Part shown: in pieces, positions 2,274-40,876 of the stretch
Numbering within the stretch: the stretch's first letter is position 1
Layout: each line of letters starts with the position of its first letter
NCBI GenBank assembly: GCA_963845185.1
Contig: CAWJRG010000010.1
Location: 389,297 to 453,296, forward strand
Reading direction: 5' to 3'
Length of the DNA: 64,000 nucleotides
DNA from: an uncultured bacterium
GTDB lineage: Bacteria > Oederibacteriota > PGYV01 > CAWJRG01
Notes under the pieces: generated by a model
Told to the model about the DNA's origin: nothing
Database searches by the model: none
Seen by the model: the letters and a program-made list of their open reading frames with translations, nothing else
Position numbers and translations under genes: made by a program

Positions 2274-3254
2274 TTAATAAGTACGGGCAAAACGGAATCC
2301 GTAATCTAACATCGCATAATACGGGTTTTCAATGCCGCGGTTGCCCACCGGCATTACAGCCGCGCTATTGTCAAAACAGCCACCCCTTGCCACCCGGATG
2401 TCTGTAAGTGCGGCTCCTCTATAATCAGTGGATGTGCCGGGATAATTTCCAAAACAGTCCCAGCACCATTCATAAACATTTCCTGACATATCATAAATGC
2501 CAAGCGCGTTCGGTTTTTTGCTGCCTACGTCATGCGTAGCAGACCCTGAATCCTCGCTGCACCATCCTACAAGCTCCGTTGCCGTTAAATCGGTATAATC
2601 ATCAGTCGCGCCGCTGGCATAATCATACGGCGTCCAGCTTGACCCGTCTATGTAGCTTGCCGCACACTGATATTCGCCTTCTGTAGGCAGCCTGTATCCG
2701 TTCGCGCTCCAATTCACAAACGGGTTATCATAACTCCCTGCTGTTGTATTTATGCTGGCTCCATATGCCCCGTCTGTAGAATCCTCGATGGGCGTGGTAA
2801 AACCAGCTTCAGAATAATACACAGGCGTCAGCCCTGTTTTCAGACTGTACGCGTTGCACCAGACTATAGTATCCCGCCAGTTCACCATTATTACAGGCTG
2901 AAATTTTGCTGCTGTCGGCGCTGCTCCGTCTGTCCCGCTGCTGCCCTCCCTGCCTGCATTTTGAAAAGTAAAACCGTTGTTGATGGCCCATTGATAAACC
3001 GTGTACCACAACTCATATGTCACCTGGTACTTACCGATTTTAAAAGCAGAAATTGTATGGGTGAAGCCGTTTGTCCCGTCAGTTTGGTAAAATGTGCCGC
3101 CTGGAACCGATACAAGCGCTGAAGAATCAATCGTAGGTACAGGAGTCGCAGCCGGGGTTGTAGGCGATGAATTCTTTTTACTGCTGCAGCCTGTTATAAT
3201 ACTGAATAAAACAACAAATGCAATTAAAACAAAAAACAATACTGATTTTTTCAT
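2274..3254 (-). CDS. Surface lipoprotein with C-terminal FGE-sulfatase (SUMF1/formylglycine-generating-enzyme-like) domain.
   Basis: True start MKKSVLFFVLIAFVVLFSIITGCSSKK at 3254 (cat at 3252-3254, GGAGG RBS). Motifs GYRLPTEGEYQCAAS, GIYDMSGNVYEWCWD and RVARGGCFDN are typical of the SUMF1 family. Confidence 0.7.
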   Translation of the reverse strand: MKKSVLFFVLIAFVVLFSIITGCSSKKNSSPTTPAATPVPTIDSSALVSVPGGTFYQTDGTNGFTHTISAFKIGKYQVTYELWYTVYQWAINNGFTFQNAGREGSSGTDGAAPTAAKFQPVIMVNWRDTIVWCNAYSLKTGLTPVYYSEAGFTTPIEDSTDGAYGASINTTAGSYDNPFVNWSANGYRLPTEGEYQCAASYIDGSSWTPYDYASGATDDYTDLTATELVGWCSEDSGSATHDVGSKKPNALGIYDMSGNVYEWCWDCFGNYPGTSTDYRGAALTDIRVARGGCFDNSAAVMPVGNRGIENPYYAMLDYGFRFARTY

Positions 3255-3336
3255 CTGAAGCCTCCAGTTTTTACATTCGGTATTTGGTATTTTGGATTCA
3301 AATTCATGAATGCTGAATGCCAAATTGTTTTAAAAC

Positions 3337-4569
3337 CTACTGCGCCCACCACACGTCATTATAATAAACAGCGCCATTATCCCAGCCGGCTATTACCCAC
3401 ATAACATTGTTGTAAACAACACTTGTATGATAGGTTCTTACGGCAAATCCTGCCGCTGACGTTGCTTCTATCCATGTTATTCCGTCGCTTGAGTTCCATA
3501 TATCGTTCAAGAAACCACATGCTCCTGCCCCGCCTATCACCCAAATTAAGTTATTATATACCACGCTCGTATGGCCGTATCTCGCGCAAAATGCCGCGCC
3601 TGTTGTTGCAGGTGCCCAGTTTTTGCCGTCGGTTGAGCTCCAAACATCATTGTACCAGGCGCTGCCGTCTACACCGCCTATTACCCACATTTCATTTTTG
3701 AATACAACGCCGGAAAGATTCTGCCTGGCGTTGAAAGAAGCCGCTGTTGTGGTGCATCCCCAGTTTTTACCATCGCTTGAATACCACGCGTCATTTAAAA
3801 AACTGCTCCCATAACCGCCTATCACCCACATTTCATTGTTGAACACAACGCTGGTATGGTATGTCCTTGGTGTAAATGCGCCTGCGGTCGTGGTGCATCC
3901 CCAATTCACGCCGTTGCTGGAATACCAGACATCGCTGTGTACGCCGCTCCATGCACCGCCTATTACCCACATTAAATTATTGTATACCACACTTGTATGT
4001 CCGTACCTTACGCTGAATGCAGCGGATGCATTTGCTTCGTACCATGTAGTACCATTGCTGGAATACCATATGTCGTTGTAGTATTTACTGGCATCCATTC
4101 CGCCTATAACCCACATTTCATTGTTATATACCACGCTGGTATGGTTGCCCCTTGCGTTGAATCCTGGCGCCGCTGTCGATAACGCCCACATGCTGCCGGA
4201 TACAGGAGTGTATGTAATCGTAGCTGTTACTGTAACCGTGGGTGATATTGCCGGAGTAGAGGAAATAGTAAAAGTTGGCGTCCTTATCGTAGCTGTTGCT
4301 GTAATCGTGGGCGATATTGCCGGAGTAGAGGAAATAGTAAAAGTTGGCGTCCTTGTGGATGTCTTGGACCAATTCGGAGTGCCTGTAAACATTGCAGCCG
4401 TGGCTGTCTGGTGCAGTACAGCGTTTGTTGCGCTGGCAGCTGCAGTTTGTGTCATATTAGGCGTGTCTGTCGCCTGCGGTGCAACAGGGTTGCTTTTCTT
4501 CTTTGAGCAGGAATTGGAAAGGATTGCCAATAATAGAATTGCAATTGCGATTATCACGAGCTTTTTCAT
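3337..4569 (-). CDS. Surface lipoprotein, family member: conserved signal-peptide cassette, Thr/Pro/Ser-rich linker with 2x 23-aa tandem repeat, and a six-blade Kelch-type beta-propeller.
   Basis: Start MKKLVIIAIAILLLAILSNSCSKKK at 4569 (GGGAGG RBS). Repeated MWVIGG...WYSSDG..W blades. 69-nt tandem repeat at about 4238-4353. Confidence 0.75.
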   Translation of the reverse strand: MKKLVIIAIAILLLAILSNSCSKKKSNPVAPQATDTPNMTQTAAASATNAVLHQTATAAMFTGTPNWSKTSTRTPTFTISSTPAISPTITATATIRTPTFTISSTPAISPTVTVTATITYTPVSGSMWALSTAAPGFNARGNHTSVVYNNEMWVIGGMDASKYYNDIWYSSNGTTWYEANASAAFSVRYGHTSVVYNNLMWVIGGAWSGVHSDVWYSSNGVNWGCTTTAGAFTPRTYHTSVVFNNEMWVIGGYGSSFLNDAWYSSDGKNWGCTTTAASFNARQNLSGVVFKNEMWVIGGVDGSAWYNDVWSSTDGKNWAPATTGAAFCARYGHTSVVYNNLIWVIGGAGACGFLNDIWNSSDGITWIEATSAAGFAVRTYHTSVVYNNVMWVIAGWDNGAVYYNDVWWAQ

Positions 4570-4629
4570 GATTAATGCCTCCCTTTTTAATATTTTCATA
4601 TATTTTATCATTTATCCTGCTTCTGTCAA

Positions 4630-4658
4630 ACAAAAAAGCCCGGAGGTCATCCGGGCCT
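4630..4658 (-). terminator. Rho-independent terminator (GCCCGGA...TCCGGGC plus U-run). Representative of about 10 near-identical terminators after family genes.
   Basis: Similar aaaaaagcccgg...ccgggc hairpins at about 6238, 8872, 10522, 12292, 13937, 16330, 18902, 20395 and 21598. Confidence 0.6.
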
Positions 4659-4718
4659 TTTATAATTCCTTAATCAACTATCCACTTTCACCTGCTCAAC
4701 TTTCCCGCGCATCGCGCG

Positions 4719-6176
4719 CTACTGGCTCCACCACGAATCTGTCGGAAAAACATCGTAACTGCCCCATCCGTTCACTATCCACATTGCGTTGTTAAACACA
4801 ACGCAGCTTGCGCCTGCCCTCGCGCTGAAAGCAGCGCCGGAAGTCGCCTGCGTCCAGTTAAACCCGTTGTCCGAGTACCATACGTCATTGGTGCTGTTGT
4901 TCCCGGCTATTGCCAGCGTCTGGCCGGCAATGACCCATATCTTATTGTTATATACCACGCATGCGGCCAGAAACCTAGGCGTAAAGCCGGCGTTCCCCGT
5001 AGCGCCTGCCCAGTTTGCTCCGTCCGTGGACCACCAGACGTCGTTATAGAATATATTTTCTATGTTGTTGTATCCGCCGGTCAGCCACATGGACCCGTTA
5101 AATGCCACGCATGAAGGCCCTGCCCTTTTAATGAAAGGGGCCTCCGCTGTTGCCTCCTGCCAGTTTGCTCCGTCAGATGAATACCAGACGTCGTTAAAAT
5201 AGCCAACGCTGTCGCCTCCTGCTATCAACCACATTTTATTGTCATATACCACGCTGGCATGATAGCCCCTTAAGCCAAACGCCGCAGATGCGGTTGCCTC
5301 CTGCCAGTTTGCGCCGTCGTTTGAATACCATACGTCATTACAATAGCCTCCATAAATATTGCCTCCAATTACCCACATTTCGTTATTGAATACTACGCTG
5401 GAATGATAGGCTCTGCCGCTAAACCCGGCGCCTGCCGTTGCCTGCGTCCAGTTTGCGCCGTTGTTCGAATACCAGACATCGTTGTATAAATAGCGTGTTC
5501 CGGAAAGATAATATACCCCTCCTATGAGCCACATATTATTATTGTAAACCAGGCTCGTATATTCTCCCCTTCCGCTTATTCCTGTAGTGCCGGTTGCTTG
5601 CGTCCATACGCTGCCGGGCACAGGAGTAATAGTCGGGGTGTATGTCGGGGTTGAAGTGCTTGTCCACAAAGCAGCCGCGGCTGTCTGCTGTTGCGCAACT
5701 ATTGTCGCTATTGCCGCAGCAGTCTGTGTCGCATTTGGCGTTTGGGTATCTGTATATTCCGGCGTGACAGTAAACGTGCTCGTCGGGCTGTATCCTGCCG
5801 CTGCCGCTGTCTGCTGTGCCGCTATGCTCGTGGCTATCGCAGCTGATGTCTGCGTGGCATTTGGCGTAAGAGTATCAGTAAACGTGCTTGTCGGGCTAAA
5901 GCCCGCGGCTGCGGCTGTCTGCTGGGCAGCTATGATAGTTTCTATAGCCGCTATTGTCTGGCTTGCATTTGGAGTTGCCGTTATTGTCGGCGTGTTCGTA
6001 GGCGAGTAAAGTTTAATCGCCATTGTCTGCGTGGCGTTCGCGTTTGCCGTCGCCGCCAGTATCGCGCCAACTGTGCCCTGCACGTCCGGCGTGGATGGAG
6101 TTTTTGTTTTTGAGCAGGAATTGGAAAGGATTATGAATGATAAAATTGCGATTGCGGTTATCAAGGTTTTTTTCAT
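4719..6176 (-). CDS. Surface lipoprotein, family member: TQA-rich repeat linker plus Kelch-type beta-propeller.
   Basis: Start MKKTLITAIAILSFIILSNSCSKTKTPSTPDVQGTVGAI at 6176. Linker repeats NATQTAAAIATIVAQQQTAAAAGY. Blades MW(V/L)IGG...VWYS.DGANW. TAG stop at 4719-4721. Confidence 0.75.
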   Translation of the reverse strand: MKKTLITAIAILSFIILSNSCSKTKTPSTPDVQGTVGAILAATANANATQTMAIKLYSPTNTPTITATPNASQTIAAIETIIAAQQTAAAAGFSPTSTFTDTLTPNATQTSAAIATSIAAQQTAAAAGYSPTSTFTVTPEYTDTQTPNATQTAAAIATIVAQQQTAAAALWTSTSTPTYTPTITPVPGSVWTQATGTTGISGRGEYTSLVYNNNMWLIGGVYYLSGTRYLYNDVWYSNNGANWTQATAGAGFSGRAYHSSVVFNNEMWVIGGNIYGGYCNDVWYSNDGANWQEATASAAFGLRGYHASVVYDNKMWLIAGGDSVGYFNDVWYSSDGANWQEATAEAPFIKRAGPSCVAFNGSMWLTGGYNNIENIFYNDVWWSTDGANWAGATGNAGFTPRFLAACVVYNNKIWVIAGQTLAIAGNNSTNDVWYSDNGFNWTQATSGAAFSARAGASCVVFNNAMWIVNGWGSYDVFPTDSWWSQ

Positions 6177-6316
6177 GATTAATGCCTCCAGTTTGATATT
6201 TTTATATATTTTATCATTTACCCCGCTTCTGTCAAACAAAAAAGCCCGGAGTTTCGCCTCGGGCCTGTATTCTTTAATTGAGCTTTGAACTTTGAACCTT
6301 GAGCTTGGCAGTCAAC

Positions 6317-6883
6317 TTACGGGTGGAATTTTTCGACTCTGTAATTCCCGCTGTCCACTACATACACGTTCCCGCTGCTGTCTACTGCTACTCCATAAGG
6401 ACTGTTAAACTGGCCATTGCCGGTCCCGTAACTGCCCCATTGCGAAATATACACGCCTGTATTGCTGAATTTTTCTATCCTGTTGTTGCCTTGATCTACA
6501 ACAAACACATTTCCATTGCTGTCCACTGCTATCCCCTTTGGCCCGTTAAACTGCCCGTTGCCGCTTCCCTGAGTGCCCCACACGGTTACAAACATCGCGG
6601 TCATGGTAGCTGTTGCGTTTGCGTTGGCTACCATGGTGCATATTGCCTGGGCCGTCTGTGTAGCGTTCGGCTAGGCAGTTGACGTTGCCGTGACTGTCGG
6701 CGTGTGCGCGGCCACGGTCTGCGTCTCCTGCGCCGCCATCTGCGTGTCCACCGCCTCCACCGTCGCCTGCACGTTCTGCGTGGGCTGGGGCGTCGGTGCC
6801 GCAGGGTTGCTTGTCTTGCTGCAGCCTGCCAATGCCAAAATAACCGCCAAAACCACAGCCATGCACATTAATATTTTTTTCAT
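6317..6883 (-). pseudogene. Lipoprotein with NHL repeats, interrupted by an in-frame TAG at 6671-6673. The same lesion is present in the copy at 16519..16941.
   Basis: ORFs 6671..6895 (MKKILMCMAVVLAVILALAGCSK...) and 6317..6634 (NHL motifs NNRIEKF and YRVEKF) are in the same frame and separated only by one TAG. GGAGA RBS before ATG at 6883. Confidence 0.6.
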
Positions 6884-6956
6884 TATGTTCTCCATTTATT
6901 TTTAGCTTTGGCTGAATGCCGAATGCCAAATTCCGAATCCAAAATGTTATTTAAGC

Positions 6957-8810
6957 CTATGGTTTAAATTTTTGGATTATGCCACGATATCGATCCGACA
7001 CATAAACATCCCCGTTGTTGTCTGTTGCCATATAAGCGGGGTTGAGAAAATATCCATTCCCGGATCCTCCATAACCGCCCCATGAAGTTATAAACCCTCC
7101 GGATGACGTATATTCCTCGATTCTAACCGGCCCATTTCCCACTCCGTTATTATTCAGCACATACACAGTTCCGCTGCTATCTACAGTTATTCCATAATCC
7201 GACACGTTTTCAAAACCATCGCCCCATGAAGTTATAAACCCCCCCGATGATGTAAATTTCTGGATTCTTTCATTATTAGAATCCGCGACATACACATCAC
7301 CTGCGCTGTCTATAGCTATCCCAACTGGCCACGAAAACTGTCCGTTATCGGTTCCGGCGCTTCCCCATGATGTTATGAATGTTCCGGATGATGTGAATTC
7401 CTCTATCCTGTTATTACCCATATCCGTGGCATATACGTTACCGCTACTCATATTTACAGCTATTCCAATATAATAATCGAATCCATTTCCCCAGACAGTA
7501 TCAGAAGGCCAAAAATTCCCGTCTCCGAATCCTTGACCTCCCCATGCAGTTATGTATTGACCTGCGGTTGTAAATTTCACTATTAACCCAGTGTCGATAT
7601 TCCCGACGTATACATTACCGGCGTTGTCCAGAGCTAAGCCGGTGGACATTCCCATGCTCGGCCAACTGTTTATAGCTGCTCCCGATGAAGTGAATTCCTG
7701 TATTGTGCCATTTTGCGAGGCAGCAAACACATTTCCGCCGTTGTCAACTGCCAGTCCCTGCGCGCTGTCGAAACTCCATTGTGTCTGGAACATCGCCGTC
7801 ATTGTCGCTGTTTGCTGCACCGCGGCAGTGGCTGCCGCCGCCGCTGCCGTCTGCTGTGCTGCGGCTGTCGCTATCTGCTGCGCCGCGGCAGTTGCCGAAC
7901 AAATTGCCACCGCCGTTTCCGTACCCTGTATCTGCGCTGTTTGCGTGGCATATACCTGTGCCGTTGATGTTGCCTGCACCTGCGCTATTTCTGTCGCGAG
8001 CGCTTGAATTGCCTGCGCTGTTGCAGTAGCTATTGCATTAGCGTCAGGGGTTGGAGTATTTGTGATAGTCGGCGTATTAGTCGCAGTGCTTGTGCTTGTC
8101 CAACCCGCCGCCGCTGCTGTCTGCTGCTGCGCCACTATCGTAGCTATTGCTGCTGCTGTCTCTGTGGCGTTCGGTGTGAGCGTGTATGTGTCAGTCGGCA
8201 CCGTAGTATAGGTATTCGTAGCGCTGTAGCCTGCCGCTACTGCCGTCTGCTGCTGCGCTATCATTGTCAGTATGGCCGCCGCTGTCTGCGTCGCGTTTGG
8301 CGTCATTGTATTTGTAAAAGTGCTTGTTGCTGTATATCCTGCCGCTGCCGCTGTCTGCTGCTGCGCAACTGCCGTAAAAATCGCTGCCATTGTCTGAGTC
8401 GCATTCGGCGTAAGAGTATCAGTAAACGTGCTTGTAGGGCTGTATCCCGCGGCAGCCGCTGTCTCTTGCTGCGCTATTATAGTAAGTATAGCTGCCTGCG
8501 TAAGCGCCACATTCGGCGTGCTGGTGGCAGTATACCCTGCCGAAATAGCTGTCTGTTGCTGGGCAATCATGGTAAGTACTGCCGCTTCTGTCTGGGCAAT
8601 GTTCGGTGTCGCGCTGATTGTCGGAGTTGATGTTGGCGAATACAATTTTATGATTTCAGTCTGAGTGGCGTTTGCGTTTGCCGCTGCTGTCAGCGCCGCG
8701 TTCACCGTGGCTGCCACGTCCGGCGTAGACGGGGTTTTTGTTTTCGAGCAGGAATTGGAAAGGATTGTGAGTAGTAAGATTGTGACTGCGATTATCCCAA
8801 ACTTTTTCAT
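6957..8810 (-). CDS. Surface lipoprotein, family member: long TQA-rich repeat linker plus C-terminal NHL-repeat beta-propeller.
   Basis: Start MKKFGIIAVTILLLTILSNSCSKTKTPSTPDV at 8810 (cat at 8808-8810). About six ATQTAAAILTMIAQQQTA.AAGYTAT linker units. NHL motifs NNRIEEFTSSG and NERIQKFTSSG. Confidence 0.75.
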   Translation of the reverse strand: MKKFGIIAVTILLLTILSNSCSKTKTPSTPDVAATVNAALTAAANANATQTEIIKLYSPTSTPTISATPNIAQTEAAVLTMIAQQQTAISAGYTATSTPNVALTQAAILTIIAQQETAAAAGYSPTSTFTDTLTPNATQTMAAIFTAVAQQQTAAAAGYTATSTFTNTMTPNATQTAAAILTMIAQQQTAVAAGYSATNTYTTVPTDTYTLTPNATETAAAIATIVAQQQTAAAAGWTSTSTATNTPTITNTPTPDANAIATATAQAIQALATEIAQVQATSTAQVYATQTAQIQGTETAVAICSATAAAQQIATAAAQQTAAAAAATAAVQQTATMTAMFQTQWSFDSAQGLAVDNGGNVFAASQNGTIQEFTSSGAAINSWPSMGMSTGLALDNAGNVYVGNIDTGLIVKFTTAGQYITAWGGQGFGDGNFWPSDTVWGNGFDYYIGIAVNMSSGNVYATDMGNNRIEEFTSSGTFITSWGSAGTDNGQFSWPVGIAIDSAGDVYVADSNNERIQKFTSSGGFITSWGDGFENVSDYGITVDSSGTVYVLNNNGVGNGPVRIEEYTSSGGFITSWGGYGGSGNGYFLNPAYMATDNNGDVYVSDRYRGIIQKFKP

Positions 8811-8839
8811 GATTAATGCCTCCCTTTTAATATTTTCAT

Positions 8840-8870
8840 ATATTTTATCATTTATCCCGTTTCTGTCAAA
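8840..8870 (-). promoter_or_regulatory. Representative copy of the conserved family promoter (TTGACAG-16/17-TAAAAT) plus 5'UTR cassette. The RBS GGGAGG lies separately at 8817-8822.
   Basis: Near-identical copies lie upstream of the starts at 4569, 6176, 8810, 12229, 13877 and 18838. -35 tgtcaa at 8864-8869; -10 atttta at 8842-8847 (minus). Confidence 0.55.
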
Positions 8871-8993
8871 CAAAAAAGCCCGGAGCTTTCGCCCGGGCCC
8901 GTTGCTGTTTTTATTTGGATTTTGAATCAAAAATTCCTAGTTATCAATCGCCAATTTTCAATGAAAAACAATTCAGAAAAACAGGTTCAGCTA

Positions 8994-10292
8994 TTATTGG
9001 ACAGAAATCGAAAATGCCATTGTGCTGTGTGTGCCGTCGCCGACAAGGTCGGTCCTGGTTGCCCCTGTCCAAAAGCATCCGGTATATAACACTGCGGAAC
9101 TTGAAACATAATATCCGGCTATATAGGGCGTGCCTCCTGAGACAAATATCGAAGTTGCCTGACTTCCATATTGGCCCGCGCCTGCGCCTACAGTCAGGTG
9201 GTACTTTACATTTCCTGCCCAGTAACACGGGGTATAAGGCATTATGTCATATCCTGCGGCATATACCGAGCCATCCTGTGTGACATATATTGATTTTACC
9301 CATCCTGCGGTTAAATCCATAGGAGTAAGCCATATACAATTGGCATTCATCCAGTAACACGGGGATTGCGTGCCGCCGGTGTTTAAATCACCGCCAACAT
9401 ACACTGTCCCGTTTGATACAACTACAGAAGATGCTTCAGCACCATTCGGGCTGGTTTGAGGGAGAGCGCCCAGCGCATTTCCATTCCATACGCAGGGCAC
9501 GTAGTTTGTACCGTCATAATAATAACCCGCTGTATATATCGTGCCATTCGCTTCATATATCGAGTTCGCGTATCCGTTTACGCTGTTGCAGTAAAGGTCG
9601 GTTTTTACGCCTCCTGCCCAGTAGCATGGCACGTTAATGGTGCCGTTGCTGTAACCTCCGGCTGCGTATACCGTTCCATTATCGGCAAAAATCGAATTGG
9701 CGTAGCCTCCGCCGCTAAGGTCGGTCCTGATGCCGTTTGCCCAGTAGCATGCGCCGTTAACCAAGCCTCCGCCTATATACATTACACCGCCGGATATGTA
9801 TATTGAAGATGCTGACCCTGCGTTGACCCCGCCGTCAAGGTCGGTCTTTACTGTCCCTGTCCAGTAACACGGGATACTTTTTGTGCCGTTATCATAATTT
9901 CCGCACGTATATACGATGGGTGTTGCGGTCGGCGTCGCTGTAGAGGACACAATTGCCGTCAATGTCGCGCTTGGCTGAATTGCCGTAATTGTTTGTGTTA
10001 TTAAAGCTGTTATTGTCGTGGTTGCAGATGCTGTAAACGGGATTTGCAGGGTATTTGTTTCAGTGAATGTAACACCGAAATTCATTGTTGCGGTTTGCGT
10101 CTGTGTTTTTGGCACGTGCGTATTTGTTGATGTCGGAGTCGCAGCGGGAATGGACGGAGTTTTTGTCAGTGTGCTTATAATTTGTGCAGTATTAGTCGCC
10201 GCAGGCGGCGTCGGCGAAGGCATTTTTTTGCATCCAATGGCGATTATTATCCCGGTTAAAAGTATAAGTGCCGGAATCAGGATTTTTTTCAT
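8994..10292 (-). CDS. Lipoprotein (second N-terminal subfamily, MKKILIPALIL...) with C-terminal Y/CYW-containing beta-propeller-like repeats.
   Basis: Signal peptide plus AIGC lipobox. Repeats G(T)..PCYW.G..TDL ... YA(A)GYY.NGT. Consensus promoter TTGACA-17-TATAAT at 10329-10357 (minus). Confidence 0.6.
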   Translation of the reverse strand: MKKILIPALILLTGIIIAIGCKKMPSPTPPAATNTAQIISTLTKTPSIPAATPTSTNTHVPKTQTQTATMNFGVTFTETNTLQIPFTASATTTITALITQTITAIQPSATLTAIVSSTATPTATPIVYTCGNYDNGTKSIPCYWTGTVKTDLDGGVNAGSASSIYISGGVMYIGGGLVNGACYWANGIRTDLSGGGYANSIFADNGTVYAAGGYSNGTINVPCYWAGGVKTDLYCNSVNGYANSIYEANGTIYTAGYYYDGTNYVPCVWNGNALGALPQTSPNGAEASSVVVSNGTVYVGGDLNTGGTQSPCYWMNANCIWLTPMDLTAGWVKSIYVTQDGSVYAAGYDIMPYTPCYWAGNVKYHLTVGAGAGQYGSQATSIFVSGGTPYIAGYYVSSSAVLYTGCFWTGATRTDLVGDGTHSTMAFSISVQ

Positions 10293-10409
10293 GATTTAAC
10301 CTCCCTTTATTTATTTCGTTCTATAGCAATTATACCCCCTTAAAACCGCCCTGTCAAGCAGGGTAAATCCCGCCAATTTTAAAGAGTACGGGGGGTATTA
10401 TCATTCGTT

Positions 10410-10494
10410 GTAGAGACGTTTTGCAAAACGTCTCTACGTTTAATCATAAATCCTCTTTTATTTAAAGTAGAGACACGCCATGGCGTGTCTCTAC
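10410..10494. repeat. Two 28-bp perfect palindromes with shared arms: GTAGAGAC-GTTTTGCAAAAC-GTCTCTAC (10410-10437) and GTAGAGACACGCC-ATGGCGTGTCTCTAC (10467-10494).
   Basis: Read directly from the sequence. They lie between the terminator of 10604..12229 and the promoter of 8994..10292. Confidence 0.6.
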
Positions 10495-10603
10495 TTATAT
10501 CCCATCCATATAAACAAAAAAGCCCGGAGTTTGACCCGGGCCTTTTATAATTCCTTAATCAACTATCCACTTTCATCTGTTCAACTTTCCCGCGCATCGC
10601 GCG

Positions 10604-12229
10604 TCACTGGCACTGCCTTATCTCTGTCCACGCATGAATGTCGGTTGTGGTCCCGTTGCCAAGCTGCCCGTAACCGTTATACCCTGTGGCCCACAGGCTG
10701 TCATCGTCCTTTAACGCGAGACTATGATAATATCCGCATGATATTGTGCTCACTCCTGTCAGCAATTGCGTCCATGTGGTTAAATTCGTCGTGGTCCCAT
10801 TGCCAAGCTGCCCGACACTATTATATCCCGTTGCCCACAAACTGCCGTCGCTCTTTAGCGCGATGCTATGCTCATCTCCGCATGCTATCGCGCTCACTCC
10901 TGTCAGCACCTGCGTCCATGTATGAATGTCGGTTGTGGTCCCGTTGCCAAGCTGCCCGACAGCGTTATTCCCTGTGACCCACAGGCTGCCGTCGCTCTTT
11001 AACGCGAGGCTATGCAAATATCCGCATGATATCGCGCTCACTCCTGTCAGCACCTGCGTCCATGCATGAATGTCGGCTGTGGTCCCGTTGCCAAGTTGAC
11101 CGGTGACGTTCCACCCCGTGGCCCACAGGCTGCCGTCGCTCTTTAACGCGAGGCTATGGTAGAATCCGCCGGCTATCCCGCTAACTCCTGTCAGCACCTG
11201 TGTCCATGTGTTTAAATTCGTTGTGTTCCCGTTGCCAAGCTGCCCGTAGGGATTATACCCTGTGGCCCACAGGCTTCCGTCGTTCTTTAACGCAAGGCTA
11301 TGATTATATCCACATGATATCGCGCTCACTCCTGTTAAAACCTGCTCCCATGTATTTCTCTGGGTTGTGGTCCCGTCGCCAAGCTGACCGTCGATGTTAT
11401 ACCCGGTAACCCACAGGCTGCCGTCGCTCTTTAAAACTAAACTGTGCTGTGACCCTGCCGCTATGGCGCTCACTCCTGTCAGCACCTGCGTCCATGTGTT
11501 TAGATTCGTTGTGGTCCCGTTGCCAAGCTGACCGTTAGTATTATATCCCGTTGCCCACAAACTGCCGCCGTCCTTTAACGCGAGGCTATTATATACTCCG
11601 CCAGTTATTGACAAAGCCTGGAAAGGCACGCATGTCTGCGTCGGCGTCGAAGTGTACGTGCCTGTCGCCGTGTATCCGGCAGCAGCCGCTGTCTGCTGCT
11701 GCGCAACTATTGTCGCTATTGCCGCCGCTGTCTGCGTCTGGTCCGGTGTATCTATATTAGTAGGTGTTGTTGTTATCGTAGGCGTTATTGTAAAAGTGCC
11801 TGTTGACGTGTACCCGCCCGCTGCTGCTGTCTGCTGCTGCGCAACTATTGTCGCTATTGCCGCCGCTGTCTGCGTAGCATTCGGCGTAAGTGTATTTGTA
11901 TAAGTGCTTGTCGCGGTAAATAAATACGCAATATAAGTTTGCGTTATCGCGGCTATTTTCGTCTGCGTGGCGTTTGCCGCGCCTACTGCTGTGATTATTA
12001 CGGCCACTGTCTGCGTCATATTCGGCGTCATAGTGCTTGTCGGCGTTACAGTGGGTGAATATAATTTTATCACCTGCGTCTGCGTGGCGTTTGCGTTTGC
12101 CTGCGTGGTCATTATAGCGCCGACTGTGCCCTGCACGTCAGGTGTGGACGGTGTTTTTGTCTTTGAACAGGAATTGGAAAGGATTGTGAGTAGTAAAATT
12201 GCGGTTGCGATTATCCCAAACTTTTTCAT
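10604..12229 (-). CDS. Surface lipoprotein, family member: TQA linker plus RCC1-like repeat beta-propeller.
   Basis: Start MKKFGIIATAILLLTILSNSCSKTKTPSTPDVQGTVGAI at 12229. Seven repeats of the type GQLGNGTTT....W, characteristic of RCC1/ATS1-like proteins. Confidence 0.75.
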   Translation of the reverse strand: MKKFGIIATAILLLTILSNSCSKTKTPSTPDVQGTVGAIMTTQANANATQTQVIKLYSPTVTPTSTMTPNMTQTVAVIITAVGAANATQTKIAAITQTYIAYLFTATSTYTNTLTPNATQTAAAIATIVAQQQTAAAGGYTSTGTFTITPTITTTPTNIDTPDQTQTAAAIATIVAQQQTAAAAGYTATGTYTSTPTQTCVPFQALSITGGVYNSLALKDGGSLWATGYNTNGQLGNGTTTNLNTWTQVLTGVSAIAAGSQHSLVLKSDGSLWVTGYNIDGQLGDGTTTQRNTWEQVLTGVSAISCGYNHSLALKNDGSLWATGYNPYGQLGNGNTTNLNTWTQVLTGVSGIAGGFYHSLALKSDGSLWATGWNVTGQLGNGTTADIHAWTQVLTGVSAISCGYLHSLALKSDGSLWVTGNNAVGQLGNGTTTDIHTWTQVLTGVSAIACGDEHSIALKSDGSLWATGYNSVGQLGNGTTTNLTTWTQLLTGVSTISCGYYHSLALKDDDSLWATGYNGYGQLGNGTTTDIHAWTEIRQCQ

Positions 12230-12344
12230 GATTAATGCCTCCCTTTTAATATTTTCATATATTTTATCATTTATCCCGTTTCTGTCAAACAAAAAAGCCC
12301 GGAACTTCCGTCCGGGCTTAGATAATATTTATAATTTGCTGTTA

Positions 12345-13877
12345 TTATTGGCGTGTAACAACACGTATGCCGTTGCCAACTATAGATGAGTCGGCCGGGA
12401 AGTCGTCCCAACGGAAGCCAACCTGGAGGTTGGACGCGTCATAGTGATAGTTACCACCCCTCATTATACGGTTAGAGCCGCTCGTTGCGCCTTTATAATC
12501 AATTTCACCAGCGGCAGGATAAGCCGCATACCAATCCCAGCACCACTCGTATAAATTGCCCGACATATCATAGATGCCCAGGGCATTTGGCGCTTTAGTG
12601 CCCACAGGCTGTGTTCCGCCGCTTGCATTAAAAAGAAACCACGCTACAAGCGCAGTTGCTGTCGTGTCAGAATAAACGTCTGTTGCGCCGCTTGCATAGT
12701 TGGGCGGAGTGCCTGTATAACTTGCCGCGTACTGGTACTCGCCTTCTGTAGGCAGCCTGTAACCGTTCGCGGCCCAGTTCACATACGGATTATCAAAACA
12801 TCCGGCGGCAGTACAGGTAGTAGTGCTATAGCTCCCGCTTACAGATGATGTAATTGGCTGGGCAAATGCCGAGTCATAATAGTAAACAGGCGTTAAACCC
12901 TTATATTGGCTATATGCGTTACACCACACTATGGCATCCCTCCAGTTTATCTTTGTTACCGGCTGATTTACAGTAACCGGCGCTGCCCCGGGTGTCCCGC
13001 TGCCTGCCTCCTCCATGCCATAATTTTGAAATGCATAACTTGTGGCCCATATGCGCACCGTGTACCATAAATTATAGGTCAGCAGGTATTTCCCTATATT
13101 AAAAGCAGAAATTGTATGCGCAAAACTGTTTCCGCTTGTATCTTCCTGTACATATGTCCCGCCCGGAACCGAAACAAGTACTGAATAATCAATCGTAGCA
13201 GTTGGTGTTGCCGTAAAAGTAGGCGTCACTGTTGGTGTAGCCGTTATCGTCGTTGTAGCTGTCCATAAAGCCGCTGCTGCTGTCTGCTGCTGGGCCACTA
13301 TCGTCGCTATTGCCGCGGCTGTCTGCGTCTGGTCCGGCGTATTTATGTTGGTAGGTGTTGCTGTTATTGTAGGCGTTATTGTAACAGTGCATGTCGCGGT
13401 ATATCCGACTGCCGCTGCTGTTTGCTGCTGCGCAATCATTGTCAAAATCGAAGCGGCTGTCTGTGTCGCGTTCGGCGTCAACGTATTTGTAAAAGTGCTT
13501 GTCGCGGTATATCCGGCCGCTGCTGCTGTCTGTTGCTGCGCTATTATAGTAAGTACAGCTGCCTGCGTAAGCGCCACATTCGGCGTGCCGGTGGCAGTAT
13601 ACCCTGCTGAAATAGCTGTCTGCTGCTGGGCAATCATTGTGAGCACTGCCGCTTCTGTCTGGGCAATGTTCGGTGTCGCGCTGATTGTCGGAGTCGATGT
13701 CGGCGAATACAGCTTTATTATTTCTGTCTGTGTGGCGTTTGTCCCTGCTGCCGCTGTCAATGCCGCGTTTACCGTAGCTGCCACATTTGGCGTGGACGGG
13801 TTGTTTGTTTTCGAGCAGGAATTGGAAAGGATTGCGAATAATAGAATTCCGGCTGCGATTATCCCGGGCTTTTTCAT
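12345..13877 (-). CDS. Surface lipoprotein, family member: TQA linker plus FGE-sulfatase (SUMF1-like) domain. Paralog of 2274..3254.
   Basis: Start MKKPGIIAAGILLFAILSNSCSKT at 13877. Motifs GYRLPTEGEYQYAAS and GIYDMSGNLYEWCWD. The N-terminal ~450 nt are about 90% identical to 6957..8810. Confidence 0.75.
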   Translation of the reverse strand: MKKPGIIAAGILLFAILSNSCSKTNNPSTPNVAATVNAALTAAAGTNATQTEIIKLYSPTSTPTISATPNIAQTEAAVLTMIAQQQTAISAGYTATGTPNVALTQAAVLTIIAQQQTAAAAGYTATSTFTNTLTPNATQTAASILTMIAQQQTAAAVGYTATCTVTITPTITATPTNINTPDQTQTAAAIATIVAQQQTAAAALWTATTTITATPTVTPTFTATPTATIDYSVLVSVPGGTYVQEDTSGNSFAHTISAFNIGKYLLTYNLWYTVRIWATSYAFQNYGMEEAGSGTPGAAPVTVNQPVTKINWRDAIVWCNAYSQYKGLTPVYYYDSAFAQPITSSVSGSYSTTTCTAAGCFDNPYVNWAANGYRLPTEGEYQYAASYTGTPPNYASGATDVYSDTTATALVAWFLFNASGGTQPVGTKAPNALGIYDMSGNLYEWCWDWYAAYPAAGEIDYKGATSGSNRIMRGGNYHYDASNLQVGFRWDDFPADSSIVGNGIRVVTRQ

Positions 13878-14096
13878 GATTAATGCCTCCCTTTAAATAA
13901 TTTTCATATATTTTATCATTTACTCCGCCCCTGTCAAACAAAAAAAGCCCGGAGCTTTCGCCCCGGGGCTGTTGTTTTTAATATTATTCCATTTGGCATT
14001 TCTTTAATATTTCCTTCCGAACATCTTTAAGAACTATGTTTGAACTCTTTTTGAACTCCTTGCGGACATCCTCAAAGAACTCTTTCCGGGCGTTAT

Positions 14097-15332
14097 TTAG
14101 GTTTGATGCTGTTTTTCCAGTATTTTTTCCGTATTCATAAAAAATTCTTCTGCTTCAAGACATTTCGTATCTGATTTATCATGTTTTTTCATGAAAGACA
14201 CAACAACTTTTTCCGTGTTTTTATACCTGTTCGAAAAAATATCCAGCGCAGCCGCGGCCTTGCCTGGATCCCCGGATTTTACTTCCACTGCAATGAGTCT
14301 GCCGCCTATGCTTAATACATAATCAACCTCAAAGTCTCTTTCACGCCAATAAAACAGCTCTCCGCCCTGTTCCTGGGCCAGCCAGTATAATCTGGAACCG
14401 ACAGCGTTTTCAAACAGCCTTCCCCGGTAAGCAAGGTCTTTAAACGATTGTTTAAAAGTACGGTTGTTTACGACGCTTATTATTGAATTATCAAGGGAAA
14501 GTATTTTGGGGCTTGAACTTTTCTGTTTTATCCTGCTTCCGCTGTATTTATCAAGCGGAACAAGAAAAAAAGCATTTGCCATTAATCTTAAATAAAAAGC
14601 TATTGTGGTGGTGTTACCCGCATCCTGCAGTTGCCCCAGCATTTTTTGATAACTGAGTATTTCAGCAGGGTGATTAAGGCAAAGCGCAAAAGCCTGCCTT
14701 AACAAAGCAGGTTTTGTGACCGGATTCATAAGCAGGACATCTTTTGCTATTACAGTTTCAATTATGGCGTCCTTTATATATATTGCCCATCGTCTTATAT
14801 TTTTTCTGATTTTTGCGGCCCCGGGATACCCGCCGTAATAAATATAATCATTTAGGGTAAATTTAAAAAATTCTTTGCACTCCTCATAAGACCAGTGGCT
14901 GTGCCTGTTTATTTCAAATCTTCCGGCAAGGCTTTCTGTCAATCCGCGCTGCATTAACAAAGATGACGAGCCTAAAATTACTATTCTTACGCGTGCCTGT
15001 TCTCTTTCATTCTTATCGTAAACATATTTTAGAGTATTGCTCCACCCGGGTATTTTCTGTATTTCATCTATTATTAACAACGTCTCGCGCTTAATCCGTT
15101 TCGCGGCATCGGCGGCAGTGTTATTTAATTCAATTATCCAGTTTCTGCTCTCCGCGCCGGGCGCGTCTGCGGTCGCGTAAAAACTCGGCCCCTTCCAACT
15201 GTCTTTAATCTGCAATACGAGCGTAGTTTTGCCCGTCTGCCTAGGCCCAATTAAAGCCTGTATAAACCGCGGCCCCCGGTTTAATTTTCCATTTATCTCT
15301 TTGTACTGTTTTTTCCGCAAATATATTTTCAT
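14097..15332 (-). CDS. AAA+ ATPase of the AAA_14 + DUF4143 family.
   Basis: Walker A GPRQTGKTT near the N-terminus, ~410 aa, typical architecture of the DUF4143 ATPase family. Confidence 0.7.
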   Translation of the reverse strand: MKIYLRKKQYKEINGKLNRGPRFIQALIGPRQTGKTTLVLQIKDSWKGPSFYATADAPGAESRNWIIELNNTAADAAKRIKRETLLIIDEIQKIPGWSNTLKYVYDKNEREQARVRIVILGSSSLLMQRGLTESLAGRFEINRHSHWSYEECKEFFKFTLNDYIYYGGYPGAAKIRKNIRRWAIYIKDAIIETVIAKDVLLMNPVTKPALLRQAFALCLNHPAEILSYQKMLGQLQDAGNTTTIAFYLRLMANAFFLVPLDKYSGSRIKQKSSSPKILSLDNSIISVVNNRTFKQSFKDLAYRGRLFENAVGSRLYWLAQEQGGELFYWRERDFEVDYVLSIGGRLIAVEVKSGDPGKAAAALDIFSNRYKNTEKVVVSFMKKHDKSDTKCLEAEEFFMNTEKILEKQHQT

Positions 15333-15399
15333 TGTGTTTTATTCTATCACGCGCTAAAAACCTTGTCAACAATTTGCTCAGTCAATTGAGCAAATTGCA

Positions 15400-16325
15400 G
15401 TTCAATATTATACGCAAATAGTACTATCCCTGACTATTCCCCGGGTTATTCGACGGATAAAAGTCATCGTGATACTCCAAAATATGTTTTTTTCAAAAGG
15501 CAAAGAGGAGTGCTCAACTATTATAAATCTCCCTGCGGCAGAGACCGCAGGGTATTCTAAAGGCATTGATGATTTGAGTAACCTACGGTTTCTCAAACTC
15601 TTCCCTTACAAGGAAACCCCGTGGCAAGACCGACGGGGAATATGTTTATTTAATCTGTCCAGACTGTAATCGAGTAGGAGTCTGGCGATTAGTTCACCAG
15701 CCGTCCTCTCACACCACCCTGCATGCGGTTCCGCACAGGGCGGTTCCTGAAAATTATAAACAATTTATGCAGCTAACGGTTTATCCTTCAACCATCCGTT
15801 TCCTGACATCTTTTGTTCCGGGTTACTTAACTCTGCGTTTAGTCCTGGCTCGATTGACACACTCGTTAACATCCATGGCTGATTCCGTCAGCCTCCTATG
15901 TGCAGAGCGGAGGGTTTCTATCCTCTCTTGCTGCGTCTCCTCGTCCTGTAGGTTTCAAAGTTTCTTTTTCTCCCTGTTTTCAAGTTCTGCCCTTCGTTTG
16001 TGGCCTCAAACTACTATGGCTTCTGCTGACTCCTCGAATTTTCCTTCGAGGTCTCCCCAGATATCACACTCCCGCTTTCACGCTTATGCCTGCCGCATCT
16101 ACGTCCGTACCTCCCGTGCAAGTACTGGACTTTAGAGACATTGGCCTCCTCATCCGATACGTCCGCCTTATATGCGGTTTCTGTTCGTCAGGCCAGCGCT
16201 TTGCCTTTGGCTTCCTGCGGATTCCACCTCACGGTGGACACCCTTGCCATTAAGCTAACGATTCCCCTTGCCGGGTTCGTGAGGAACTTTCATCCCTTAT
16301 CGGATGTGCGCTGCTGGGCGTACCA
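15400..16325 (-). ncRNA. Non-coding region whose minus strand shows ordered, highly divergent similarity to the 5' domain (about the first 700 nt) of bacterial 23S rRNA. Either an rRNA relic or a structured ncRNA.
   Basis: No credible ORF. Motifs in the right order on the minus strand: ccaccgtgaggtggaatcc (cf. ACGGTGGATGCC), gcataagcgtgaaagcgggagtgtgatat (cf. GCGATAAGCGTCGGTAAGGTGATAT), gaacttgaaaacagggagaaaaagaaac (cf. GAACTGAAACATCTAAGTA..GAGGAAAAGAAA), gccaggactaaac (cf. CCAAGGCTAAATAC), agtctggacagatta (cf. GGGTCAGCGACTTA). Identity is far below normal 23S conservation. Confidence 0.35.
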
Positions 16326-16518
16326 AACAAAAAGCCCGGACTTTCGCCCGGGCCTTTTGCTTTATATTATTCTATTCTGTATTCTGCATTCAGCAAACCA
16401 TCCAACCCTCCGGCCTTCCATTCCTCCGCCTTTATTGCCCCGGGCTTATTACTTTTGCTTTATTCTATATTATATATGGCCTTTGGAATACCGATTACCA
16501 AATTCCAAATCTAAAATA

Positions 16519-16941
16519 TTACGGTTTGAACACTTCAACTATATTATTCCCATAATCTGCGACATACACGTTCCCGCTGCTGTCTACTGCTATTCCTTCA
16601 GGTGCAGAAAACTGCCCGTTACCGGTGCAGCAGCTGCCCCAGGAAGTCACAAACATCGCGGTCATGGTAGCTGTTGCGTTTGCGTTGGCTACCATGGTGC
16701 ATATTGCCTGGGCCGTCTGTGTAGCGTTCGGCTAGGCAGTTGACGTTGCCGTGACTGTCGGCGTGTGCGCGGCCACGGTCTGCGTCTCCTGCGCCGCCAT
16801 CTGCGTGTCCACCGTCGCCTGCACGTTCTGCGTGGGCTGGGGCGTCGGTGCCGCAGGGTTGCTGGACTTGGAGCACGCCGGAATAATAACCATTATTAAA
16901 ATTGTGGTGAAAGTTAAGAGCGCAAATCTGTTTTTTATCAT
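16519..16941 (-). pseudogene. Short lipoprotein plus single NHL repeat paralog, carrying the identical in-frame TAG (16731-16733) as 6317..6883.
   Basis: About 180 nt identical to 6600-6790 except a 9-nt indel. N-terminus MIKNRFALLTFTTILIMVIIPACSK. C-terminal part MVANANATATMTAMFVTSWGS...NNIVEVFKP. Confidence 0.55.
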
Positions 16942-16990
16942 TTCAACTCCTCCTATTTATTTCGCCGTATATTTTAAAAACAGCGAAATT

Positions 16991-18838
16991 CTATTGGCTG
17001 AACACCTCTACATACGGGTCGGCATCCGGATCAACAACATACACTTTGCCGCTGTTGCCAACGGCAATGGCCCACGGATACGCAAACTGCACCGAACTGC
17101 CCCACATTGTTATAAAATCCAGGTTTGACGTAAATTTCTGCACATCTAAACCTTGAAGATCAACGACATACACATTTCCGCTATTGTCCACTGTTACTCC
17201 CTGGGGATTCTCAAACTGCCCTGGCCCGTTCCCATAAGTTCCCCCAATCCCTTGTACAAATACTCCCATTGACGTGAATTTCCATAGCCCTTCGAGATTA
17301 ACTACATATACATAATTTCCGCTGTTGTCTATGGCTATTCCTGCTGGGAAAGTAGAACTTGTCCAAAGAGGATAACTCCACGACTTTATTAACTCTCCCG
17401 TTGGCGAATATTCCATGACATTATAGCCGGCAAAGACATAGATGTTGCCACTGTTGTCTACTGCTATTGTTTTATTGTCAGTAATACCAGCCAGTGTTTT
17501 TATGCATTCACCTGTTGATGTGAATTCAAATACTCCGCCATTATCAATTAAATAAACATTACCGCTGTTGTCCACCGTTATTCCATCAGGTGGCATATAA
17601 AAATTCCAGCCGCAGGCGCTGCCGTCCCATGCAATTATAAATTGACCGGCTGACGTAAACTCCTCTATTCTCTTATTGCCTGAGTCCGAGACATACACAT
17701 TCCCGTTGTTTTTGTTTACGGCCACGCCACCGGGAACGTAAAGCTGCCCGTCTCCGGAACCGGGGCTGCCCCATGCCGACATGTTCATTGCGGTCATTGT
17801 TGCCGTTTCCTGCGCATTCACCTGCGCTGTTGCCGTTGCCTGCGCATTTGCCTGTGCTGTGGCTGTTTCCTGTGCCTGCGCCTGCGCCGTTTCCGCTGCC
17901 TGTTCCGTCGCAGTTTCTGCCGGTGGCAGCGCTGCCGCTGTCTGCGTCGCCTGCGCCTGCGCTGTTGCTGTGCCAACCACCTGCGCTGTTAACTCTGCCT
18001 GCGCTGCGGCTGTCGCCTGCGCCTGTGCCGTTGCTGTGCCAACCACCTGCGCCGTTAACTCTGCCTGAGCCTGCGTTGTGGCCGTTGCCTGCACCTGCAT
18101 TATGGCAGTTAAAGTTGCCTGCGCCTGCGCCGTTGCGCCTGCCGTCAGCAGTATTACAGCTGTCTGTGTAGCCGGCGCCTCTGCCGTCTGCTGTGCCTGC
18201 GCGGTTGCTGTTTCCTGCGTCTGAATTGCCGCTGCTGTCTGCTGCTGCGCCACTATCGTGGCTATTGCCGCCGCTGTCTGCGTCGCGTTTGGCGTAAGAG
18301 TATATGTATCAGCCAGCACAGCGGTATAAGTACTTGTTGCGCTGTACCCTGCCGCCGCCGCTGTCTGCTGCTGCGCAACTATTGTCGCGATCGCGGCTGC
18401 TGTCTGCGTGGCATTCGGCGTGAGCGTGAAAGTAAATGTAGGCGTCGCGGTATATCCTGCCGCGCCTGCCGTCTGCTGCTGGGCTACAAGCGTCAAAATT
18501 GCCGCTGCTGTCTGCGTAGCGTTCAGCGTCGGGGTAAGCGTAAATGTTACTGTAACGGTATATCCTGCCGCGCCCGCTGTCTGCTGCTGGGCTACAAGCG
18601 TCAAAATTGCCGCTGCTGTCTGCGTAGCGTTCGGAGTATCCGTGATTGTCGGCGTATTTGTCGGTGAATACAGCTTTATTATCATTGTCTGAGTGGCGTT
18701 TGCGTTTGCCTGCGTGGTCATTATTGCGCCGACCGTGCCCTGCACATCGGGCGTGGACGGTGTTTTTGTTTTCGAGCAGGAATTGGAAAGGATTGCGAAT
18801 AATAGAATTCCGACTGCGATTATACCGAACTTTTTCAT
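16991..18838 (-). CDS. Surface lipoprotein, family member: TQA and Ala/Gln/Thr-rich linker plus NHL-type beta-propeller.
   Basis: Start MKKFGIIAVGILLFAILSNSCSKTKTPSTPDVQGTVGAI at 18838. NKRIEEFTSAG motif. Long AQAQATATAQ low-complexity stretch. Confidence 0.7.
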   Translation of the reverse strand: MKKFGIIAVGILLFAILSNSCSKTKTPSTPDVQGTVGAIMTTQANANATQTMIIKLYSPTNTPTITDTPNATQTAAAILTLVAQQQTAGAAGYTVTVTFTLTPTLNATQTAAAILTLVAQQQTAGAAGYTATPTFTFTLTPNATQTAAAIATIVAQQQTAAAAGYSATSTYTAVLADTYTLTPNATQTAAAIATIVAQQQTAAAIQTQETATAQAQQTAEAPATQTAVILLTAGATAQAQATLTAIMQVQATATTQAQAELTAQVVGTATAQAQATAAAQAELTAQVVGTATAQAQATQTAAALPPAETATEQAAETAQAQAQETATAQANAQATATAQVNAQETATMTAMNMSAWGSPGSGDGQLYVPGGVAVNKNNGNVYVSDSGNKRIEEFTSAGQFIIAWDGSACGWNFYMPPDGITVDNSGNVYLIDNGGVFEFTSTGECIKTLAGITDNKTIAVDNSGNIYVFAGYNVMEYSPTGELIKSWSYPLWTSSTFPAGIAIDNSGNYVYVVNLEGLWKFTSMGVFVQGIGGTYGNGPGQFENPQGVTVDNSGNVYVVDLQGLDVQKFTSNLDFITMWGSSVQFAYPWAIAVGNSGKVYVVDPDADPYVEVFSQ

Positions 18839-19006
18839 GATTAATTCCTCCCTTTTAATGTTTTCTATATTTTATCACTTATCCCGCTTCTGTCAAACAA
18901 AAAAGCCCGGAGTCTATGCCCCGGGCCTGTTGTTTTTGCATTTATCTATTCTGTATTCGGCATTCAGCATTCAAGCATTCGAATCCAGAATCCCAAATCT
19001 TAAAGA

Positions 19007-39276: not shown

Positions 39277-39413
39277 TTCAATTCCTCCGTTGTGCAATAT
39301 ATACCTTGGATATAAAACTGTTCTTATTTCAAACAGTTTATCACAAATTATTTTGCGGGTTGCAGCAAATTAGACCTTGTTTTTTGCAGAACCTCGTCAA
39401 TCGAAGTTTACAA

Positions 39414-40570: not shown

Positions 40571-40876
40571 AACTATTTCTTTATTATTTGCCTATAGAGT
40601 ATTATCATTTGCCACCTAATAAATTAGTTTAATTTTATGAAATACCCTGCGGGTTGTCAAGAATTATTTAAAAAATTGAAATTAACGCTTATTGGATAAA
40701 AAATTGATTTGGCAAGCTTGGGTTTTTAAGGTTGCGCTTGGAAGGAAAAAGTATTAAGATTCGAACAAAAGGAGCACAATAATGGCAAATATAATACTGA
40801 AAAAAGAAACAGAAATAATGCAAGTCATTTATAGCAAATGCAGGTCAATTAGAAAAGCAAGTGTGGTATCGGCAGC

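Follow-up and report, generated by a model that had tools for sequence, protein, structure and literature searches.

The first part of the window analysed here, a stretch of 64,000 nucleotides (nt) from contig CAWJRG010000010.1 of an uncultured bacterium, carries a row of genes in which repeat-rich N-terminal regions precede globular heads of unrelated kinds, and this raises the question whether such repeats form quickly variable, glycosylated stalks, as an initial annotation had it, or serve as structural elements of another kind. All long open reading frames (ORFs) in this part of the window lie on the minus strand, and each of the genes g1-g9 (2274-20179, minus strand) encodes a protein that begins with a signal peptide ending in Cys, continues with a low-complexity tether and closes with a globular head. 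According to Pfam, the heads are Kelch propellers in g2 and g3, NHL propellers in g4, g8 and g9, an RCC1 propeller in g6, and FGE-sulfatase-type domains in g1 and g7; no head could be assigned to g5. Six paralogues (g2, g3, g4, g6, g7, and g8) constitute the TQA family, and arrays of the TQA module were found in all of them except g2. On balance we consider it probable that the N-terminal regions are lipid-anchored tethers of adjustable length, built from helix-plus-linker modules and slowly remodelled by duplication or deletion of units and by gene conversion. The TQA module is lineage-specific, has no earlier description and shows a degree of conservation uncommon in linkers, but phenomena of this class are familiar.

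Tether length ranges from 23 residues in g1 to 339 in g4, and from 106 to 339 in the six TQA-family genes, whose tethers contain 23-28% Thr, 14-28% Ala, and 2-7% charged residues.

Two repeats in the tethers

The tethers contain two distinct repeats, the 69-nt unit of g2 and the TQA unit. The segment 4216-4353 of g2 is a real, recent in-frame duplication of 23 codons. Tandem Repeats Finder reported a period-69 array at 4217-4354 (2.0 copies, 95% matches), bearing out the 69-nt (23-residue) tandem unit of the initial annotation. Self-BLAST of the first 22 kb of the window aligned 4217-4285 with 4286-4354 (95.65% identity, E=1.5e-25) and detected no further copy in these 22 kb. In the protein phase, on the minus strand, the two copies read RTPTFTISSTPAISPTITATATI (4353..4285) and RTPTFTISSTPAISPTVTVTATI (4284..4216); 66 of their 69 bases are shared, and the three differences are one synonymous change and two conservative replacements (I->V and A->V). 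This is an undescribed, yet ordinary kind of linker variation.

The TQA unit has a period of 108 nt, or 36 amino acids (Tandem Repeats Finder), with variants of 30, 42, and 46 amino acids, and not the 30 residues given earlier. Its consensus is TPNATQTAAAIxTxVAQQQTAAAAGYTxTxTxTxTP (alignment A3). A profile was built from 30 units of this alignment, and the counts given here are of units passing it: 5, 4, 4, 3, and 2 plus a variant in the five arrays, and 0 in g2, in place of the 2-6 copies originally noted. As annotated, the repeats of the paralogues are coding, in frame, and situated in the N-terminal low-complexity region of secreted-type proteins. TQA units are present in all five ranges where the same nucleotide blocks were said to recur, but the copies are 59-95% identical in nucleotides (75-nt unit core) and thus not the same blocks. 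The profile search found no TQA units beyond 22 kb of the window. The genes of the family and their elements are as follows.

g2, 3337..4569, minus strand: probable lipoprotein (MKK...LSNSC) with a Kelch beta-propeller (PF24681, 4.5e-49; Kelch_1, 1.7e-28); no unit passes the TQA profile, one degenerate unit is visible by eye at about 4381-4464
Duplication in g2, 4216..4353, minus strand: in-frame 69-nt tandem duplication (2 x 23 amino acids, RTPTFTISSTPAISPT[I/V]T[A/V]TATI) in the Thr/Pro/Ser/Ile-rich linker
5' cassette of g2, 4570..4660, minus strand: terminator hairpin with T-run, TTGACA-16-TGaTAAAAT promoter, GGGAGG (alignment A2)
g3, 4719..6176, minus strand: probable lipoprotein with a Kelch propeller; 3 TQA units at 5634-5975; 5' cassette at 6177-6268
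g4, 6957..8810, minus strand: probable lipoprotein with a further Ala/Gln/Thr-rich stretch and an NHL propeller; 5 TQA units at 8070-8609; 5' cassette at 8811-8900
g6, 10604..12229, minus strand: probable lipoprotein with an RCC1 propeller (PF25390, 1.7e-83); 2 canonical TQA units and 1 longer variant unit at 11642-12028; 5' cassette at 12230-12319
g7, 12345..13877, minus strand: probable lipoprotein with an FGE-sulfatase-type domain; 4 TQA units at 13233-13676; 5' cassette at 13878-13967
g8, 16991..18838, minus strand: probable lipoprotein with a TQA array, Ala/Gln/Thr-rich repeats and an NHL propeller; 4 TQA units at 18188-18637; 5' cassette at 18839-18928

The TQA module is predicted to combine an amphipathic helix, about 20 residues long (TQTAAAIATIVAQQQTAAAAG), with an (X-Thr)n/Pro linker of 12-22 residues behind it. 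Two AlphaFold runs were made, one for the N-terminal region of g8 (10-sequence alignment, mean predicted local distance difference test score, pLDDT, 45.6) and one for full-length g3 (38-sequence composite alignment, mean pLDDT 81.6); both placed one helix of about 20 residues in each TQA unit and predicted no regular structure for the (X-Thr)n/Pro segments. For g3, the model has pLDDT 95-99 in the Kelch propeller, about 50-64 in the stalk helices (32-49, 71-90, 107-126, and 149-168), and below 50 in the linkers; no confident contact between stalk and propeller was seen in it. As read from alignment A3, large hydrophobic residues at i, i+3, and i+4 (I-x-x-I-V) form one apolar stripe. The label mucin-like suits the 23-residue unit of g2, in which Thr, Pro, and Ser make up 14 of 23 residues (61%), but not the TQA unit (33% Ala, 33% Thr+Ser+Pro), the core of which is predicted to be helical.

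The helix peptide is under strong purifying selection. In canonical TQA units the proportion of non-synonymous differences (pN) is 0-0.09, against 0.28-0.70 for synonymous ones (pS); where two units encode the same amino acids, 40-70% of the synonymous sites still differ, and in the 24 codons compared between the third units of g3 and g8 (g3.3 and g8.3) all 12 differences are synonymous. When all pairs of units are taken together, the pN/pS ratio of the helix is 0.24 (0.141/0.593) and that of the tail 0.45 (0.309/0.693). Six units of the window have the same 17-residue core, TQTAAAIATIVAQQQTA, and this core recurs unchanged in units of the RCC1-headed homologues L002 and L004 of other genomes, with mostly synonymous differences between them. 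The RCC1 heads of L002 and L004 are 59-60% identical to that of g6, so that conservation is higher in the TQA module than in the head behind it.

Three observations concern the remaining low-complexity sequence. Between the TQA array and the NHL head of g8 there are additional Ala/Gln/Thr repeats (17798-18110, minus strand) with periods of 30 and 24 nt. A 66-nt tandem pair within them (17946-18075) encodes AQAELTAQVVGTATAQAQAT twice. Both g4 and g9 contain a similar Ala/Gln/Thr-rich stretch.

Shared front ends, mosaic identity and copy number

The 5' cassettes of the six TQA-family genes are about 90% identical (alignment A2), and nucleotide identity among the paralogues is 85-100% from the terminator hairpin through the signal peptide. 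Each cassette contains, in this order, a G+C-rich hairpin with a T6-7 run, the promoter TTGACA-16 nt-TGaTAAAAT, a GGGAGG ribosome-binding site eight bases ahead of the ATG, and the codons for MKK...ILSNSCSK. The predicted promoter is close to the sigma-70 consensus, and the hairpin with its T6-7 run has the form of an intrinsic terminator. A search with the 39-nt cassette pattern (<=1 mismatch) gave 5 matches against 0 expected; TTGACA-16-TAAAAT with a preceding TG was found upstream of 6/6 genes, and a terminator hairpin directly upstream of 4/6. With a terminator hairpin and its own promoter before it, each paralogue therefore appears to be a separate, monocistronic transcription unit. The T6-7 run lies upstream of the -35 box as part of the terminator, and in the 16-nt spacer, GAAGCGGGATAAATGA, alignment A2 and the promoter scan revealed no repeat tract, homopolymer or other switch element. 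No RNA family of Rfam was detected in the conserved 5' cassettes. The same terminator-promoter junction precedes the RCC1 gene L002 of a related genome.

The signal peptide, MKK followed by about 17 hydrophobic residues, is common to the six genes and all homologues; residues 2-19 of g3 were modelled as a helix by AlphaFold. In all homologues retrieved, the hydrophobic region ends with a Cys, which alignment A1 of ten sequences shows to be invariant (C21). The box preceding it is L-S-N-S-C in the window genes, with Asn at -2, and SGSC, QGC, YAC or NTC in the homologues.

Two further observations were made on the flanks and leaders of the cluster. The 100 nt directly 3' of the g3 and g6 stop codons (4628-4726 and 10512-10611) are 92% identical, and therefore the 3' flanks, including the next terminator hairpin, are shared in addition to the 5' cassettes. 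The genes g5 and g9 have a second type of front end (MKKILIPALIL...C-KK), their promoters (10329-10357 and 20316-20344, minus strand) being a perfect consensus, TTGACA-17-TATAAT; relatives at the loci L002 and L004 share this type of leader and have a TAQ-rich tether.

Identity between the paralogues is patchy along their length. In sliding windows, identity between g4 and g7 is 92-97% for about 150 nt, a tract that includes their first two units, and then less than 75%; between g7 and g6 it is 50-65% in the leader and 80-90% in the last unit and the linker ahead of it. The promoters of g4 and g6 are 97-100% identical, their coding regions 83-88%, and the FGE head of g7 is 68% identical in nucleotides to g1. 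With this distribution, g7 looks like a g4-type front joined to a g6-type back and a g1-related FGE head. The first two units of g8 have an unusual junction, TLTPTLNATQT, and units and junction alike are found again in P0002 and P0004, proteins encoded on other contigs and bearing a different head. Such mosaic identity, which points to recombination or gene conversion, agrees with the earlier suggestion of modules shuffled between paralogues, as does a tract of about 250 nt that is 100% identical between two small NHL genes (6317-6895 and 16519-16941) with flanks of about 70% identity. As far as sequence comparison goes, this tract is direct evidence for recent gene conversion in the region.

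Located downstream of g4 and g8, which encode NHL heads, the two small lipoprotein/NHL genes (minus strand) each contain an in-frame TAG exactly at the expected start of a TQA unit (TATSTA*PNATQTAQAI...). This TAG falls inside the identical tract and was therefore spread by recent gene conversion; for the same reason, conserved recoding of the shared codon was considered and rejected. The two genes probably are pseudogenes or use an internal start.

The initial annotation was right that copy number varies. The number of TQA modules is 0-5 across the paralogues; among RCC1-headed homologues, g6 has 2 canonical units, L002 has 4, L004 has 1, and L006 has none passing the profile (variant units only), and among FGE-headed ones, g1 has 0, g7 has 4, and P0006, P0008, P0010, and P0013 have 1-2, all of these being comparisons between species or paralogues, not strains. 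The arrays are old, since mean nucleotide identity of TQA units is the same within a gene (72%) as between genes (71%). Adjacent units are about 60-80% identical and near synonymous saturation (pS 0.4-0.7); the closest pairs are g8.1/g8.2 (95%), g4.1/g7.1 (93%), and g4.2/g7.2 (92%), and BLAST matches between genes are about 65-88% identical across the arrays. Only three young tandem duplications were found in the cluster, those of 69 nt in g2 (95.7%), 108 nt in g8.1/g8.2 (95%), and 66 nt at 17946-18075 (92%). To judge from these identities, the pattern fits occasional duplication or unequal recombination and not frequent slippage, so the slipped-strand variation proposed for the TQA arrays is not supported.

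Possible roles of the tethers

In the reading that we favour, the TQA array would act as a partly stiff stalk keeping the heads away from the lipid anchor. Tether length would shift slowly, through occasional duplication or deletion of a unit by unequal recombination and through conversion between paralogues, and not by rapid slipped-strand switching; the 69-nt duplication would be the latest length change, adding 23 residues to the tether of g2. Several points weigh against this. Both the location of the proteins and the importance of tether length are things that we infer. Asn at -2 falls outside the usual lipobox, [LVI][ASTVI][GAS]-Cys immediately behind the hydrophobic region, and outside the residue set of PROSITE PS51257, and because the lipobox is atypical, lipidation is deduced from the conserved Cys only. 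The pLDDT of the stalk is low (45-64), so that the isolated helices may reflect a shallow alignment, and the proposed conversion rests on sliding-window identity and the identical tract. Finally, conservation of the helix residue for residue, above that of the heads, is more than would be required of a passive spacer and speaks for a specific partner or for self-association.

This last point is the core of another reading, which we hold only tentatively: the TQA helix could be a specific interaction module that binds a shared envelope component (an outer-membrane or S-layer protein, or a polysaccharide) or self-associates through its Ile/Ile/Val stripe, possibly as a coiled coil or helical bundle, so that different heads are docked to or co-assembled at one site, a function resembling that of dockerins, SLH domains or choline-binding repeats. 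The peptide is kept within and between genomes while synonymous sites and heads diverge, its hydrophobic residues are spaced as in an amphipathic helix, the module is shared by five kinds of head, and in the N-terminal AlphaFold model DSSP assigns strand or bridge to TFT segments of neighbouring units. However, AlphaFold shows no confident packing and the partner is hypothetical; homologous heads tolerate 0 to 5 copies, the FGE-type g1 having none; and no known anchoring family of Pfam, NCBIfam or the Protein Data Bank (PDB) is matched. It seems unlikely that the TQA unit is a lineage-restricted structural or interaction repeat serving FCPU426-like bacteria as a shared 'handle' that docks varied heads onto one envelope structure; under that assumption the promoter cassettes, strong and identical in all six genes, would ensure joint expression of the heads, which we regard as similarly doubtful. 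The model of the initial annotation, with mucin-like, heavily O-glycosylated stalks whose length varies quickly by slipped-strand mispairing and differs in size within the population, appears improbable. It has in its favour the Thr, Pro, and Ser content of the 23-residue unit, the inter-helix linkers, which are (X-Thr)n/Pro-rich with pLDDT <50, and the three young duplications. In addition, at a distance of 17-26 kb from g9, with which the lipoprotein cluster ends, there are genes for two GT-C glycosyltransferases of the PMT_2 family, a Wzy_C protein and a GT2 enzyme, and PMT-family enzymes O-mannosylate Thr-rich regions of actinobacterial lipoproteins. On the other side, the TQA units are old and divergent and hence a poor substrate for slippage, their core, one third of it alanine, is predicted to form a helix, the promoter spacer lacks a switch element, and PMT_2 is a broad family whose genes here sit in an apparent polysaccharide locus. 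Least credible, to the point of being very nearly dismissed, is that the repeats are an assembly artefact or meaningless low-complexity sequence in non-coding or pseudogenic DNA: the assembly is probably metagenomic, repeat-rich paralogues are prone to mis-assembly, and two small neighbouring genes contain in-frame stop codons, but all six genes stay open through the tether into heads that score well against Pfam, the copies differ enough to assemble separately, with differences biased to synonymous sites, and the same modules occur on independent contigs from other samples.

The glycan-assembly locus (37132-47335), the only lead for glycosylation of the Thr-rich tethers, comprises:

37132-39297 and 40877-42397: PMT_2-family GT-C glycosyltransferases
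39414-40217 and 42569-43540: two near-duplicate ORFs, one apparently partial
43494-44438: GT2 enzyme
44557-45858: Wzy_C/O-antigen-ligase-like protein
45863-47335: multi-pass membrane protein, putative flippase

Several known systems resemble the cluster in part. Pro/Thr-rich ('PT') linkers of secreted bacterial enzymes and the Thr-rich, O-mannosylated N-terminal regions of actinobacterial lipoproteins are likewise uncharged, low-complexity Thr/Pro-rich segments between an anchor or signal peptide and a globular domain, with length varying between homologues, and the duplicated 23-residue unit of g2 fits this description. The TQA unit, however, is a sequence-conserved Ala/Gln-rich helix under strong purifying selection, whereas PT linkers are conserved in composition only, and glycosylation, which occurs in the actinobacterial regions, is hypothetical for the tethers of the window. 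The Mycoplasma Vlp/Vsa families also are lipoprotein multigene families in which a conserved 5' region and signal peptide are followed by in-frame repeats of variable number. Vlp/Vsa repeats are nearly identical in nucleotides and form the variable part of the surface, and the promoters carry a switch. In the window, by contrast, the repeats are old and conserved as peptide, the promoters have no switch element, and the variable part is a folded head; with repeats that are not near-identical and promoters without a switch, the cluster lacks the defining features of a phase- or size-variable system. The OspE/OspF/Elp genes of Borrelia ('upstream homology boxes') similarly combine near-identical upstream regions and leader peptides with divergent mature proteins, a pattern attributed to recombination, but these are spirochaete plasmid genes without a shared repeat-built tether, while the window genes form a chromosomal tandem cluster. 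Braun's lipoprotein Lpp is a lipid-anchored, Ala-rich helical element comparable in that its length would set a distance in the envelope; it is a single continuous trimeric coiled coil without a head, unlike the short TQA helices that alternate with flexible linkers and carry propeller or enzyme heads.

If the tether reading is true, the cluster illustrates how the surface proteome is put together in a candidate phylum known from very few samples: a single front end for export and tethering is reused, with recombination among the copies, before interchangeable propeller and enzyme heads. Linkers are not usually better conserved than the heads they carry, and the TQA module would therefore be a candidate motif of a new kind for anchoring or spacing. 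In genomes of this type, the repeat arrays are also likely to cause difficulties in assembly and annotation. The finding does not bear on any question of long standing.

Distribution of the module and other features of the window

The tether gave no match in Pfam or NCBIfam and nothing significant in the PDB (best match E=0.6). A word-indexed search of 5.8 billion clusters yielded 11 TQA homologues, to which a search of the word-indexed collection with the profile of alignment A1 (2 proteins) added nothing. The exhaustive search with the 36-residue TQA profile returned 5 matches among 1.84 billion representative proteins, which makes this profile a specific marker for TQA proteins. In the genome collection the module was found at one locus, L001, in a candidate division FCPU426 genome from palsa peat, and in the metagenome collection at at least five loci, those listed all being from one sample. 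FCPU426 is a rare, poorly sampled candidate phylum (PMC10434106). By this one named relative, the window is tentatively placed in the same lineage. The translation of g7 is identical to the database protein P0001. In the window and the homologues together, the module precedes five kinds of head, namely Kelch, NHL, RCC1, FGE-type, and a C-terminal domain without Pfam match (P0002/P0004); the FGE-type paralogue g1 is without any TQA module. A search with full-length g2 identified no close orthologue, the matches being distant Kelch proteins with <=56% identity in the propeller only, and no mention of the TQA peptide motifs was found in the literature.

Three other interpretations of the TQA sequence were rejected. 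A 'TQxA' thioester adhesin domain is contradicted by the lack of a match to the NCBIfam thioester 'TQXA' family and of a partner Cys; NAT at the unit start is not an obligatory N-glycosylation sequon, as several units carry NIA, NVA or DQT instead; and ice binding by TxT strands and Ala-rich helices was dropped in view of the irregular spacing of Thr.

Further NHL-repeat proteins are encoded at 57247-63960 (minus strand), one of them with 1174 amino acids, and 17 NHL repeats in three propeller blocks that Thr/Pro linkers connect. Their C-terminal tails resemble a type IX secretion sorting domain, with a weak Por_Secre_tail match at 63469-63960 (E=5.7e-4). At 61112-62396 the ORFs appear to be split, which hints at a frameshift or at faulty assembly in this region.

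A group II intron was detected by Rfam at 15669-16238 (minus strand; RF02001, 139 bits; RF01998; RF00029), with a flank to about 16355 and no ORF for an intron-encoded protein at 15669-16238. It follows a seventh copy of the family terminator hairpin (16334-16353), and this seventh cassette breaks off within the -35 box (TTTTTGTTTGG|TACGCC...). Bacterial class C introns insert after intrinsic terminators, and the intron of the window resembles them.

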